This document shows positions 1 through 14,686 of a stretch of 15,603 nt of DNA, in pieces. Numbering within the stretch: the stretch's first letter is position 1; the number at the start of each line of letters is the position of its first letter. The notes below the pieces were generated by a model that saw only the letters and a list, made by a program, of their open reading frames with translations, had not been told where the DNA came from and made no database searches. The DNA is from a virus. The translations under genes were made by a program, and so were the position numbers. The stretch is from the UHGV virus genome UHGV-1832398. One strand, 5' to 3'.

Positions 1-90
1 TTGCCTCCCCCCCGTTGATGGGTAAAATAGCCGCAATTTTTCGTTTTCAACAAGCGCGGCGCGATGCCGCTTACTCAAGAAGAAAGAATT

Positions 91-165
91 ATGACGTTGT
101 CTCCTTATTTGCAAGAGGTGGCGAAGCGCCGCACTTTTGCCATTATTTCTCACCCCAATAATTAA
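91..165 (+). pseudogene. prfC: 5' fragment of peptide chain release factor 3 gene (first 22 codons, [22 protein letters not shown]), then divergence to NN-stop; host gene interrupted by the prophage junction
   Basis: Translation from ATG at 91 matches my recollection of the RF3 N-terminus up to the start of the GTPase P-loop, where the native sequence should continue DAGKT; here it continues NN and stops at 163-165. Upstream 1-90 looks like a host promoter/leader. Confidence 0.7.
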
Positions 166-319
166 GCCCAAGTTAAAGCTCTTTTACTCTTTTAAAATCC
201 TTTCAGTCAATTGAGGTTTAGCTATATAACTCATTTAAATACATTTGGTTATGTAACTTCTTTAATTGAAAATTCTTTCATGTAACTTTAAATCGATCAG
301 GTTGCTTTCATCAAAAATC

Positions 320-376
320 TGTACATATGCTTGTACATAATGTACAAAGCAGCAGAGGTGTTTTGCGATTTGTACA
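320..376. promoter_or_regulatory. Cluster of four TGTACA palindromic hexamers (320-325, 332-337, 341-346, 371-376) immediately upstream of the integrase start; candidate Int arm-type or operator sites
   Basis: Direct reading: TGTACA-TAA-TGTACA forms a 15-bp near-perfect palindrome at 332-346; further copies at 320 and 371; int SD AGGTGA at 377-382. Confidence 0.35.
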
Positions 377-385
377 AGGTGAGTA

Positions 386-1609
386 ATGGCGCTGTCTGAT
401 GCGTGGTTGCGTTCAGTCGTTGGAAAGGAACGTGATAAGGTTTTGGTTAAATCCGATCGTGATGGTCTGTCTGTCAGAGTATCACCGAAAGGTCGCGTAG
501 TGTTCCAATATCGTTATCAATGGGCAGGGAAAGGTGAGCGTCTTGATATCGGAACTTACCCGGCAACTGGATTAAAAGAGGCCAGAGAAGAAGTTATCCG
601 TCTCCGTGGTGAACTCGAGTCAAACCGTAATCCACGATTGGTCAAGCAGGCTGAAAAACGAAAAGCTACTGAAGCCATGACGGTAGAGTCTGTGATCCGT
701 GCCTGGTATGAAGCATATTGTGTAAAAAATAAAAAAGGTTCTGAACAGATACTCCGCTCGTTTGAGCTGCACCTGTTCTCTAAAATCGGGAATATCCCTC
801 ACGATGCAGCTACATTGCATGATTGGTTAGAAGTCTTGGAGCCTCTTAGCACTAAGACTCCAGCAATAGCAGACCGATTGCTAATTAACGCAAAGCAGGC
901 CCATGTCTGGGCGTATAAGAGAAAGCTCATTGAAACTCGCCCGCTGTCGGATATCACGGGTAAAGATATGGATATCCGTAAAGGTCAGAAGAAACGGTTT
1001 CTGACACATGATGAAATTAAAATCCTTTATTCTGCGATCGATGGTTCTCGAATGGTTCCTAAATACCGGGCCTTCATTAAACTACTGCTGCATTTTGGTT
1101 GCCGTAGTTCAGAGCTAATTACCGCCAGGGTGGACGATTTTGATTTCATTAATAAAGTATGGACTGTACCACCAGAACGACATAAGACTGGGGAGATAAC
1201 AGGCGAACCGCTAAAGCGGCCCATTATTGAACCGGTTGAAGAGCTTATAAAGTACGCTATCTCTATGAACAATGGTTCCGATATGCTTTTTACTAAGGAA
1301 GGAAGCAGGGAACCCGTTGGTCGAACATCATTGCAGTCGCTACCTTACAATTTAATGCAATACGCATGGCGGCGTTTTGGGTATCAATTCCCTCATTGGT
1401 CTCTTCATGATTTGAGACGGACAGCACGAACAAACTTTTCAGATCTTACTGCGCCTCATATCGCAGAAATAATGCTCGGTCATAAACTGCCAGGGGTATG
1501 GCAAGTTTATGACAAGAGCGATTATTTAGAAGAACAGCGTAAAGCTTACCAAAAATGGTGGGAGAGGATTGAGGCGATAGTTACTTGTACTTGTTCAGAC
1601 AGCAACTGA
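386..1609 (+). CDS. int: Tyrosine-type site-specific integrase (phage integrase)
   Basis: 407-aa ORF adjacent to the junction; C-terminal catalytic signature HDLRRTARTNF (H-x-x-R) and downstream Tyr (VYDKSDY); SD AGGTGA upstream. Confidence 0.9.
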   Translation: MALSDAWLRSVVGKERDKVLVKSDRDGLSVRVSPKGRVVFQYRYQWAGKGERLDIGTYPATGLKEAREEVIRLRGELESNRNPRLVKQAEKRKATEAMTVESVIRAWYEAYCVKNKKGSEQILRSFELHLFSKIGNIPHDAATLHDWLEVLEPLSTKTPAIADRLLINAKQAHVWAYKRKLIETRPLSDITGKDMDIRKGQKKRFLTHDEIKILYSAIDGSRMVPKYRAFIKLLLHFGCRSSELITARVDDFDFINKVWTVPPERHKTGEITGEPLKRPIIEPVEELIKYAISMNNGSDMLFTKEGSREPVGRTSLQSLPYNLMQYAWRRFGYQFPHWSLHDLRRTARTNFSDLTAPHIAEIMLGHKLPGVWQVYDKSDYLEEQRKAYQKWWERIEAIVTCTCSDSN

Positions 1610-1813
1610 CAGTCCGCTTTGAGCGGGGAGCGGACGTTAGGGGAAGAGTGGTCTGGAAAAATGTAGTGATATTCGACGCAGATATTTAGGCTGAGCACGA
1701 GGATTTTACTTTCTATATGAGTGACTATTATAAAAACTGCTCTCAGAATTTGATAGTATTTGATATGATACGCTCTTCTTTACTTATGCGTTTTTTAATA
1801 GGGTTAATATATA

Positions 1814-3028
1814 ATGACTAAGCAAAAAAAACCTAGGAAAGTTCGGATAACAAAAGCTGAAAAAGAACGACGTGCAGAGTTTGATAAAAAGGAAATGAAT
1901 ATACGTGAGTATTTTTCAAATTTAAATAAACATGTGAACGATATTCGTAGTAAAGAGCGAGATTTTCATGGCCTTATCAGAGAACTGAATTACTTTCAAA
2001 AAAATATTGAATTTGAATACGAGAAAACGAGGGACATATCCCATCCAAGAGACTTAGGCAATGCTCGCGAAAATATACTAAAAGATTTTTTGAAATTAAG
2101 CGGTTTATTCCCAAGGCGTTATGCTGTGTCTTCAAGAAGCGTAAGAGTTGCTGCTGCTACAGGACATCTTAGCAACGAGATTGACATCGCATTATATGAT
2201 GCAGATGATGGATATGTGCTAATGCAGCGTAACGAAATATATGATGTTTACCCTTCTGAAAATGTATATGGAGTTATTCAAGTAAAATCAAAACTTACTA
2301 GGAAAGAATTAAGCAGTGCCATAAAAAATATTGCATCATATAAAAAACTACAAAGAAAAAAGAATGGCCATGGATTTTTTATAAATAACACATCATTCTC
2401 AGGGTTCGGAGTTGTTTTTGCATATGAAACAGAAATGCACTGGGATGATATAGTATCTGCTCTTAAGGAAGAAATCCAGAGTAATGAAACAAAATTACTA
2501 CCCAATGCAGTTTTCATATTAAATAAAGGCTATTTTTTATTTGGTAACAACAATGAATATCTGAGTTATAATTCAGATAGGATGATTAATGCAACTGACA
2601 TGATTGTACATGGCTTTCCTGATCGTGATGGTTGTTCCTTAGTTAACTTCCACAAGTTAATGATTACATTGTTGAATAATACTCAAAAAGGGAATGTAAA
2701 TATAAGTGATTATTATAGATTACCTTTAACTGCTGGAGATTATTCTTACGAATTTAATTTTGGTATGTTTAATGAGTTAATTAACTGTGAAGTACACGGT
2801 CCATATCATCGTTTATTCAAAGAGAAAGCTTTAAAAACATTAGTAAATTATTGTGTTAGCAATGAACAGATTAATATGGTTAAGTTAATCGACTTGGCTT
2901 TAGGTAAAACTCCAAATAATGAGGAAGCATACCAAAGACAACCATCGATGGTGACATTATATAACCCAGAAAATTTGCCACTACCTGAATTAATGTTTAG
3001 GGCGGTTCCGATGGTAAAGAATATATGA
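1814..3028 (+). CDS. Hypothetical 404-aa cargo protein; N-terminal region carries a restriction-endonuclease-like (Mrr/PD-(D/E)xK-type) signature, C-terminal ~220 aa unassigned
   Basis: Long ORF, markedly AT-rich relative to flanking phage genes. Motifs read from translation: GNARENILKDFLKLSG (aa 82-97), EIDIALYD (D124 at nt 2183-2185), VIQVKSK (Q156 at 2279-2281, K158 at 2285-2287). Followed by hairpin plus T-tract at 3168-3206. Confidence 0.6.
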   Translation: MTKQKKPRKVRITKAEKERRAEFDKKEMNIREYFSNLNKHVNDIRSKERDFHGLIRELNYFQKNIEFEYEKTRDISHPRDLGNARENILKDFLKLSGLFPRRYAVSSRSVRVAAATGHLSNEIDIALYDADDGYVLMQRNEIYDVYPSENVYGVIQVKSKLTRKELSSAIKNIASYKKLQRKKNGHGFFINNTSFSGFGVVFAYETEMHWDDIVSALKEEIQSNETKLLPNAVFILNKGYFLFGNNNEYLSYNSDRMINATDMIVHGFPDRDGCSLVNFHKLMITLLNNTQKGNVNISDYYRLPLTAGDYSYEFNFGMFNELINCEVHGPYHRLFKEKALKTLVNYCVSNEQINMVKLIDLALGKTPNNEEAYQRQPSMVTLYNPENLPLPELMFRAVPMVKNI

Positions 3029-3438: not shown

Positions 3439-3633
3439 TTACTCAATTACTCCAGCAAACCTGTATATCTTACGTGATGCCCATTTATTTGGGCAGGATT
3501 TAATATCAGGATCTGGAAAATCTTGTCTGTATTTCTGGCCAGTCCTCCTATTTACGCTGTTCCAGCGAAGCACCGTTGATATTGAAACGCCACAGAATTC
3601 GGCGACTTGTTTTGTTGTCATTAAGTTGTTCAT
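3439..3633 (-). CDS. AlpA/Xis-family small helix-turn-helix protein (candidate excisionase / prophage regulatory protein)
   Basis: 64 aa; N-terminal MNNLMTTKQVAEFCGVSISTVLRW matches the AlpA/excisionase HTH pattern (L-T-x-KQVAE-x-x-GVS-x-ST-x-x-RW); SD GGAGGGG upstream of the ATG at 3633. Confidence 0.7.
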   Translation of the reverse strand: MNNLMTTKQVAEFCGVSISTVLRWNSVNRRTGQKYRQDFPDPDIKSCPNKWASRKIYRFAGVIE

Positions 3634-13889: not shown

Positions 13890-14189
13890 AAAAATTCCTT
13901 AATACTGATAACTGGGCGCACTATACACACGTTCCTGAAGAAAGCTATAGTTTTTTGATGGGGGTGAAGATGGCTGGATGTCTAAAATAAACATTGCTTC
14001 ATATGTTCAACTATGCGTTAATGATTGCGTCGGTTTGAAGAACAGACGATATACGAAGTAGTTTACTAAAGCAGTTCTCATTTCAGGTGTTATTCACTTA
14101 TTCCTTCTTTGAGTCTCTCCAATTAAGTACGAAGTCGTTTCTGTTATACAAGCCATTTATGCCGAAAGGCTCAAGTTAAGGAATGTAGA

Positions 14190-14405
14190 ATGTCAAATAA
14201 AATGACTGGTTTAGTAAAATGGTTTAACGCTGATAAAGGTTTCGGCTTTATTTCTCCTGTTGATGGTAGTAAAGATGTGTTTGTGCATTTTTCTGCGATT
14301 CAGAATGATAATTTTCGAACCTTATTTGAAGGTCAAAAGGTTACCTTCTCTGTAGAGAGTGGTGCTAAAGGTCCTGCAGCAGCAAATGTCATAATTACTG
14401 ATTAA
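14190..14405 (+). CDS. cspB: CspB/CspA-family cold-shock protein
   Basis: 71 aa; [19 protein letters not shown] ... VFVHFSAI (RNP1/RNP2 motifs); conserved 5'-UTR 'upstream box' GCCGAAAGGC at 14161-14170 as in cspA-family leaders. Confidence 0.85.
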
Positions 14406-14686
14406 AATTCATAGTTTGTCTGTATACGATAACGAAGAAGGCTGATGCCTGAGTGGAGATACAGACAGAGTGGTGAATATTGGATCTCTTTAATAAATAG
14501 TAAGGAGGTCCAATACATGAAACAATGGCCAGCATATTTGGCAATAACTTAATCAGGAAAAGTATGCTAACCATTGTGGTGAAGTGCAGGTTTGCTGCAT
14601 GAATAGTTTTACAGCAGAAGCTAACTGCTGGCATAGCAAAACAAAGTGCGTAAGTGGATGACTCCCACAAAAAGTACCACAATATT

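Follow-up and report, generated by a model that had tools for sequence, protein, structure and literature searches.

Insertion into prfC has already been described for Stx phages by Ogura (2007; PMC2323221), who noted that the RF3 N-terminus is altered and that the gene loses its own RBS and promoter, and who left expression open; in the work of Bobay et al. (PMC3603311), prfC was scored among the genes 'disrupted' by prophages. [quoted passage not shown] In the KplE1 prophage, attL overlaps the promoter of intS, and both Int and the RDF repress int, the repression by Int having been shown experimentally (Panis et al. 2010; PMC2951348).

We analysed a stretch of 15,603 nucleotides from the virus genome UHGV-1832398 (hereafter the window) and compared its first 385 positions with these systems. 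A preliminary description had read these positions as a prophage junction inside the 5' end of prfC, noting that this gene is a reported phage integration site (as published for Stx phages; PMC2323221), with two kinds of short repeats between the junction and int. Alignment to uninterrupted loci places the junction in prfC as proposed: positions 1-385 are the attL junction of a temperate phage whose integration site is prfC codons 18-22. Our reading as a whole, in which an attL in prfC would carry TGTACA arm sites for Int, int would be autoregulated and RF3 would be rebuilt at attR, appears probable from the sequence comparisons given below. The prfC junction was already known and is an ordinary att site; the assignment of TGTACA as an arm site would add a modest new detail.

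The attL junction and the rebuilt prfC

Positions 1-155 (+ strand) are host DNA, comprising the yjjG-prfC intergenic spacer, whose first base in the window lies directly after the yjjG stop codon, and prfC codons 1-22, whereas phage DNA starts at position 156. This boundary follows from the uninterrupted prfC loci, which match only 1-155, from an annotated duplication and from the intact attP of the free phage Ayreon (isolated on E. coli K-12), which has the order P arm-core-P' arm-int. Among 5,426 complete E. coli genomes, about 4,700 had an uninterrupted prfC and a match to the window confined to 1-155, and about 700 (~13%, roughly 1 in 8) matched through int in prfC; the attL junction was counted in 699-701 of the genomes and the attR junction in 699.

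The identity between attP and attB spans 14 bp, ATTATTTCTCACCC (142-155), and covers the I-I-S-H-P codons just ahead of the RF3 P-loop. This core is present in attB, in attP of Ayreon, in attL and in attR, and all four agree; in addition, Stx phage records such as LC727876.1 carry a 14-bp 'duplication due to insertion' annotated at both ends that maps to window 142-155. The K-12 empty site, with the host sequence that follows the core, reads ...ATTATTTCTCACCC GGACGCCGGTAAG, in keeping with the host assignment of 1-155. The truncated prfC remnant (91-165, +), which the annotation of E. coli JNU labels a partial pseudogene, translates into the RF3 N-terminus followed by a phage-derived NN and a stop codon at 163-165. 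The ORF at 91 is thus prfC-derived, as the preliminary description had it, and the crossover that it had placed at about 140-165 falls within this interval, at the 14-bp duplication.

The description had overlooked that the codons AAT AAT TAA, encoding the NN-stop, hold the right half of an inverted repeat around the core, ATTATT (142-147) and AATAAT (157-162) separated by 9 bp. The same geometry recurs in the Ayreon attP and, with other letters, in diverged IMG/VR att sequences (ATCATC-N9-GATGAT in L097 and ATCATC-N9-GATAAT in L102), and we infer that the repeat (142-162) represents candidate core-type Int sites. Downstream of the core, positions 156-385 (+) form the P' arm of the attachment site, which is phage DNA, has an order identical to that of the Ayreon P' arm and serves also as the upstream and leader region of int.

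Neither a second copy of the core nor an attR was found within the window, which stops well short of the far prophage end; the prophage of E. coli JNU is about 36 kb long. JNU, which is 99.9% identical across window 1-1700, was used for the far end. In its attR, and in that of an Stx2c phage, the P arm ends with ...TTGTACATATGATTGTACATAATCAAAGAGACAACAATT ATG ACA AGC CTT TTG GCC GCA GAG GTA GCG AAA AGA AGA ACC TTT GCA ATT ATT TCT CAC CC, so that the 14-bp core recurs at the distal end and the phage-supplied start is fused in frame to GGA TGC CGG TAA G... (DAGKTT). The resulting hybrid prfC has a phage start codon plus 21 codons and is annotated as intact (528 aa). The reconstitution of prfC at the other prophage end, anticipated in the preliminary description, is therefore found in JNU and the Stx2c phage as well as in the 699 genomes with an attR. 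Across the stretch EVAKRRTFA, the phage and host copies differ by 8 nucleotides in 6 codons, all of them synonymous, which argues for selection on the peptide and hence for purifying selection on the phage-encoded prfC start. The label 'disrupted' looks inaccurate for this module, in which the gene is rebuilt with a phage start. Since such a rebuilt, phage-started prfC occurs in about one of every eight genomes, the question arises whether the RF3 level, and hence translation quality control, is altered in these prophage-bearing E. coli.

Some further observations were made around surrogate prfC starts. No sigma70-consensus promoter for the surrogate prfC was found on the + strand of the P arm. 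On the attR side of JNU (L004 31255-31330; also L003 1340-1400), the outer P arm adjoins a divergent dinI-like gene preceded by two LexA-box-like sequences (CTGT-N8-ACAG and CTG-N10-CAG), which would put an SOS-regulated promoter within ~200 bp of the surrogate prfC start. In Serratia sp. CP109901.1 (L093 1196-1265), the prfC 5' remnant upstream of a prophage codes KRRT as AAA AGA AGA ACT and its codons resemble the surrogate copy of the E. coli phages, but it lacks an upstream TGTACA; it could be either native or left over from an earlier insertion.

Repeated motifs of the attachment-site arms

Four TGTACA hexamers lie between the junction and int, at 320-325, 332-337, 341-346 and 371-376, exactly where they had been reported, together with the palindrome TGTACATAATGTACA (332-346), which is 15 nt long and has 7-bp arms around a central A. 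The whole window contains 7 copies against ~3.3 expected in 15.6 kb, and the four within 57 bp compare with ~0.01 expected, a ~300-fold excess; the remaining three copies are at 2605, 9267 and 15139. The first two hexamers form a tandem pair, P'1-P'2 (TGTACA-N6-TGTACA, 320-337, +), with 12 bp from start to start; P'3 (341-346, +) forms the 15-nt palindrome with P'2, and P'4 (371-376, +) immediately precedes the Shine-Dalgarno sequence of int.

All four hexamers are invariant in the 22 distinct upstream sequences of the E. coli lineage. We further recovered Int homologues at the same prfC codons in Trabulsiella (83% identity), Pantoea stewartii (82%), Xenorhabdus (64%), Serratia (61%) and Shewanella (51%); the diversity of these relatives came from a GTDB scan, a protein search and a DNA pattern scan, the search of IMG/VR with the Int protein having yielded only sequences of at least 96% identity. 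In an alignment of 8 sequences, with Int identity down to 51%, the arm has diverged nearly completely outside three blocks, and the sole invariant non-coding blocks of the arm are TGTACA at 320-325, GTACA at 333-337 and TGTACA at 371-376, P'4 being thus unchanged in all eight, whereas P'3 is kept in the E. coli phages, Trabulsiella and Pantoea only. The 12-bp spacing of P'1-P'2 is kept in Trabulsiella, Pantoea, Xenorhabdus, Serratia and Shewanella, and the distance to the int ATG varies little across relatives (65-70 nt for P'1 and ~53-58 nt for P'2, with P'4 starting 15-19 nt upstream). A Pantoea agglomerans relative with 55% identity, which is not in prfC, has TGAACA-N6-TGTACA upstream of int.

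The motif also recurs on the other arm. The Ayreon attP has four TGTACA on each arm, every repeat family recovered there by the repeat finder is built on TGTACA, and a 35-nt direct repeat between the P and P' arms is 80% identical. In diverged attR and attP sequences of IMG/VR, TGTACA or near-match hexamers (CGTACA, GGTACA) precede the surrogate prfC ATG by 17-29 nt, mostly as pairs spaced by 12 bp, and the attP of L097 has hexamers on both arms; for the more diverged relatives, these P-arm sequences were taken from unrelated IMG/VR contigs and thus from other elements than those that gave the P' arms. ICE R997 of the SXT/R391 family (PLSDB record), which targets the same prfC codons, presents at its right end TGTACA-N6-TGTACA, 18 nt, and then the ATG and the surrogate prfC 5' end, with two more TGTACA pairs on its other arm. 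Because TGTACA is palindromic, the orientation of each site is given only by the flanking W-A bases.

The TGTACA hexamers are almost certainly functional in view of this conservation, and most likely they are arm-type docking sites of Int that overlap the int leader. Across the elements compared, TGTACA tracks the arm-binding domain of Int and neither the RDF nor the target gene nor the host, as it is kept in R997, across genera and in the relative outside prfC, and the R997 Xis is unrelated. Arm-type sites are also to be expected because Int has an Arm-DNA-bind_3 domain. The literature searched yielded no description of TGTACA in connection with an integrase or with arm-type sites, nor of arm-type sites for the prfC phages of the Stx/cdt type or for SXT/R391.

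The best-surviving alternative is that the hexamers are operators of a separate phage or host transcription factor acting on int and on the surrogate prfC start. Dimeric regulators prefer palindromes, and here the hexamer itself is one and a pair of hexamers makes another, of 15 nt; moreover, on both arms the sites are directly upstream of a start codon, that of int or of the surrogate prfC. Yet the motif is kept in elements of Shewanella, Serratia, Xenorhabdus, Proteus (ICE R997) and E. coli that share little but a related Int, whose best-conserved part is the arm-binding domain, and the tandem 12-bp direct spacing on both arms around the core is the classical layout of arm sites; TGTACA is also absent from the cI-cro control region, and we consider a separate regulator unlikely. 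CI operators in particular were rejected on this last ground.

The preliminary description had proposed the ATGTAACTT pair as well, as arm-type Int sites or an operator. Both copies are present at the positions it gave (251-259 and 280-288, +); they are exact 9-mers 29 bp apart and the only two in 15.6 kb, where 0.12 would be expected and none of 200 shuffles reached two. Conservation separates them from TGTACA. Of the 22 E. coli-lineage sequences, 20 retain copy 2, which overlaps the semi-conserved block TTCTTTCATGTA, but copy 1 is exact in 1/22 only, namely in the window itself, the other 21 having mostly ATGTGGCTT, in some cases ATGTGATTT or other variants. Neither copy is kept in Trabulsiella, Pantoea, Xenorhabdus, Serratia or Shewanella (Int at most 83% identical), and ATGTAACTT is absent from the P arm. 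We rejected ATGTAACTT as a conserved repeat, and a role as functional arm-type or accessory sites seems quite improbable; of the two proposed repeats it is TGTACA, conserved and present on both attP arms, that stands as the probable arm-type site.

The least plausible alternative, that TGTACA marks sites of the excisionase (Xis/RDF), draws on the short direct repeats that RDFs bind in att arms and on the phrog_1553 excisionase encoded at 3439-3633 and kept in several relatives, but is very hard to reconcile with ICE R997, which has the same motif and a Xis without detectable similarity to that of the window, and with the presence of TGTACA on both arms, RDF sites being normally on one.

A third motif, CTTTCA (yCCTTTCA/TGCTTTCA), occurs three times in the arm (200-205, 275-280 and 305-310, +). 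At the equivalent positions, Trabulsiella has all three and Pantoea stewartii the first two, with GCTTTT as the third; the motif was not clearly present in the arms of Xenorhabdus, Serratia and Shewanella. There are 18 copies window-wide against 12 expected, so that the support is the local clustering, and these may perhaps be candidate sites of an accessory protein.

The int leader and the proposed mechanism

The int gene (386-1609, +) encodes a tyrosine integrase (PHROG 1 integrase) with an N-terminal arm-binding domain, in which Pfam recognised Arm-DNA-bind_3 (residues 3-90, 2e-16), Phage_int_M and Phage_integrase (2.5e-17). Its ATG at 386 is 230 bp from the core, the TGTACA sites start 15-66 nt upstream of it, and a Shine-Dalgarno-like AGGTGAG (377-383, +) lies between, of which GTGAG is largely kept in the 8-sequence alignment. 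The xis gene (3439-3633, -; PHROG 1553 excisionase, E = 2.5e-35), coding for the recombination directionality factor, is convergent with int; in Xenorhabdus, Serratia and Shewanella, xis homologues are found directly after int.

No sigma70-consensus promoter for int was found on the + strand of 156-385, although the conserved TGTACATAAT could hold a -10-like CATAAT, with a poor -35. A sigma70-like match, TTGCCT-16-TAAAAT, is present at 1-28, on the host prfC side. Since int is downstream of this host prfC promoter region and no intrinsic terminator was predicted between the prfC remnant and int, read-through into int is possible. Positions 1-400 gave no Rfam match to a structured RNA.

In the mechanism that we propose, Int would act as a heterobivalent tyrosine recombinase, with strand exchange within the 14-bp identity at 142-155, flanked by the ATTATT/AATAAT half-sites. 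Its N-terminal domain would dock on TGTACA(W)A sites in a defined orientation, of which the P' arm holds four (320-376) and the P arm, at the distal prophage end, three or four, and the bridging of arm sites and core by Int would form the intasome. The P arm brings a surrogate translation start and 21 codons, and presumably a promoter, so that integration rebuilds a full-length RF3 at attR. Because the arm sites occupy the int leader, lying in the 70 bp ahead of the ATG with one abutting the RBS, autoregulation of the KplE1 kind is implied, and Int probably represses its own gene through the P' arm sites.

A broader idea is that TGTACA(W)A constitutes an arm-site code shared by a superfamily of prfC-targeting integrases, from lambdoid and Stx phages to SXT/R391 ICEs, in which one tandem pair would always precede the surrogate prfC start by 17-29 nt and a second would lie in the int leader, with Int occupancy tying both the rebuilt RF3 and int expression to the state of the element. 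We regard this as a speculative and rather doubtful extension; if it were true, RF3 expression would be controlled by a phage in ~13% of sequenced E. coli. In any case, TGTACA offers a concrete, testable arm-site motif for the family of integrases on which Shiga-toxin and cdt phages rely for their movement, as the SXT/R391 resistance ICEs do on a homologous module, and could help to define minimal att sites and to predict cross-reactivity or tandem insertion at prfC.

Two genes of the window outside the integration module were also recorded. A 404-aa DUF6602 protein is encoded between int and xis (1814-3028, +) and matches the PADLOC NucC and PD-(D/E)xK nuclease models (E = 2e-24 to 1e-16), which makes its gene a candidate anti-phage defence cargo at the att-proximal end of the prophage; its JNU homologue, at 451 aa, is longer. 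At 14029-14468 (+), a full-length Rfam match to the cspA thermoregulator (158 bits; gathering score 78) spans a 71-aa ORF (14190-14405) and looks like a phage cold-shock-protein gene with its regulatory 5' UTR.

Comparison with known integration modules

The window module has the features of a lambda-Int-type attL, namely an Int with arm-binding and catalytic domains, a duplicated core, a motif on both arms that is distinct from the core and an encoded RDF. Like lambda (P1, P2, P'1-P'3), it would combine a heterobivalent Int with an inverted repeat at the core and a distinct motif repeated on both arms, and in both systems neighbouring arm sites are spaced by about one helical turn. Lambda differs in its arm consensus and in having an int whose transcription runs towards att, with no autoregulation by way of arm sites; in the window arm, unlike in lambda, an IHF consensus was looked for and not found within one mismatch.

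A regulatory parallel is KplE1 (CPS-53): its intS and the window int both adjoin attL and are transcribed away from it, with arm sites (proposed ones in the window) that overlap the promoter or leader and an RDF that is transcribed separately. The P4 int/att region (Pierson and Kahn, 1987) is said to be arranged similarly. KplE1 nevertheless targets a tRNA gene, argW, and has an arm motif containing TAAA, instead of prfC and TGTACA; IntS (that of IME10) is only ~22% identical to the window Int, and the window int is additionally downstream of the host prfC promoter, unlike the KplE1 gene.

The window module resembles the SXT/R391 family in targeting the same I-I-S-H-P codons and in supplying a surrogate ATG from its far arm. 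SXT itself reportedly supplies a new promoter and N-terminus that give a functional hybrid RF3, a finding attributed to Hochhut and Waldor in 1999. The window Int, however, is 39% identical overall to that of R997 (57% for the arm domain, against 24% for the middle domain and 39% for the catalytic one), far from the near identity that defines IntSXT, and in place of a conjugative backbone (tra genes, setCD/setR) the window has phage cI-, cII- and replication-type genes, the full JNU element encoding capsid and tail genes. The orientation also differs: the R997 int points towards attL with xis in between, so its promoter is not in the arm, whereas the window int starts beside attL. By its target codons, surrogate start and arm motif, the window module would thus work like the SXT/R391 integration module, but it is outside that family. 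A separate case is the IMG/VR contig UViG_3300038708_000015 (L102 460-1400), in which the part preceding the core is identical to the R997 right end, including the TGTACA pair and the surrogate prfC start, and is followed after the core by a different sequence and int (MKRVNLTDTWLR...); it looks like a second element inserted into an SXT/R391-supplied prfC start, that is, tandem accretion at prfC.

The nearest relatives are prfC phages of the Stx/cdt type. Window 1-1599 has 96-97% DNA identity to Stx1a/Stx2c phage records (27 among the matches listed), 33 phage records match at 95-99%, and Int is 97-98% identical in amino acids to those of Ayreon and the Stx phages. The Stx1a/Stx2c-converting phages of O145:H28 and O103 (LC727876-LC727902) carry this 14-bp core along with the surrogate prfC start, and phages cdtI and 2H10, compared by attP, have 96% DNA identity to Ayreon in that sequence. 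Only the int/att module is common to the window prophage and these phages: the JNU prophage, nearly identical over window 1-1700, has a contractile-tail morphogenesis set beyond the window, and the window prophage carries the DUF6602/NucC-like gene between int and xis, unlike the Stx/cdt-type phages compared. With its near-identical Int and attP, the window module is, on these alignments, a member of the prfC-integrating phage group of the Stx/cdt type.
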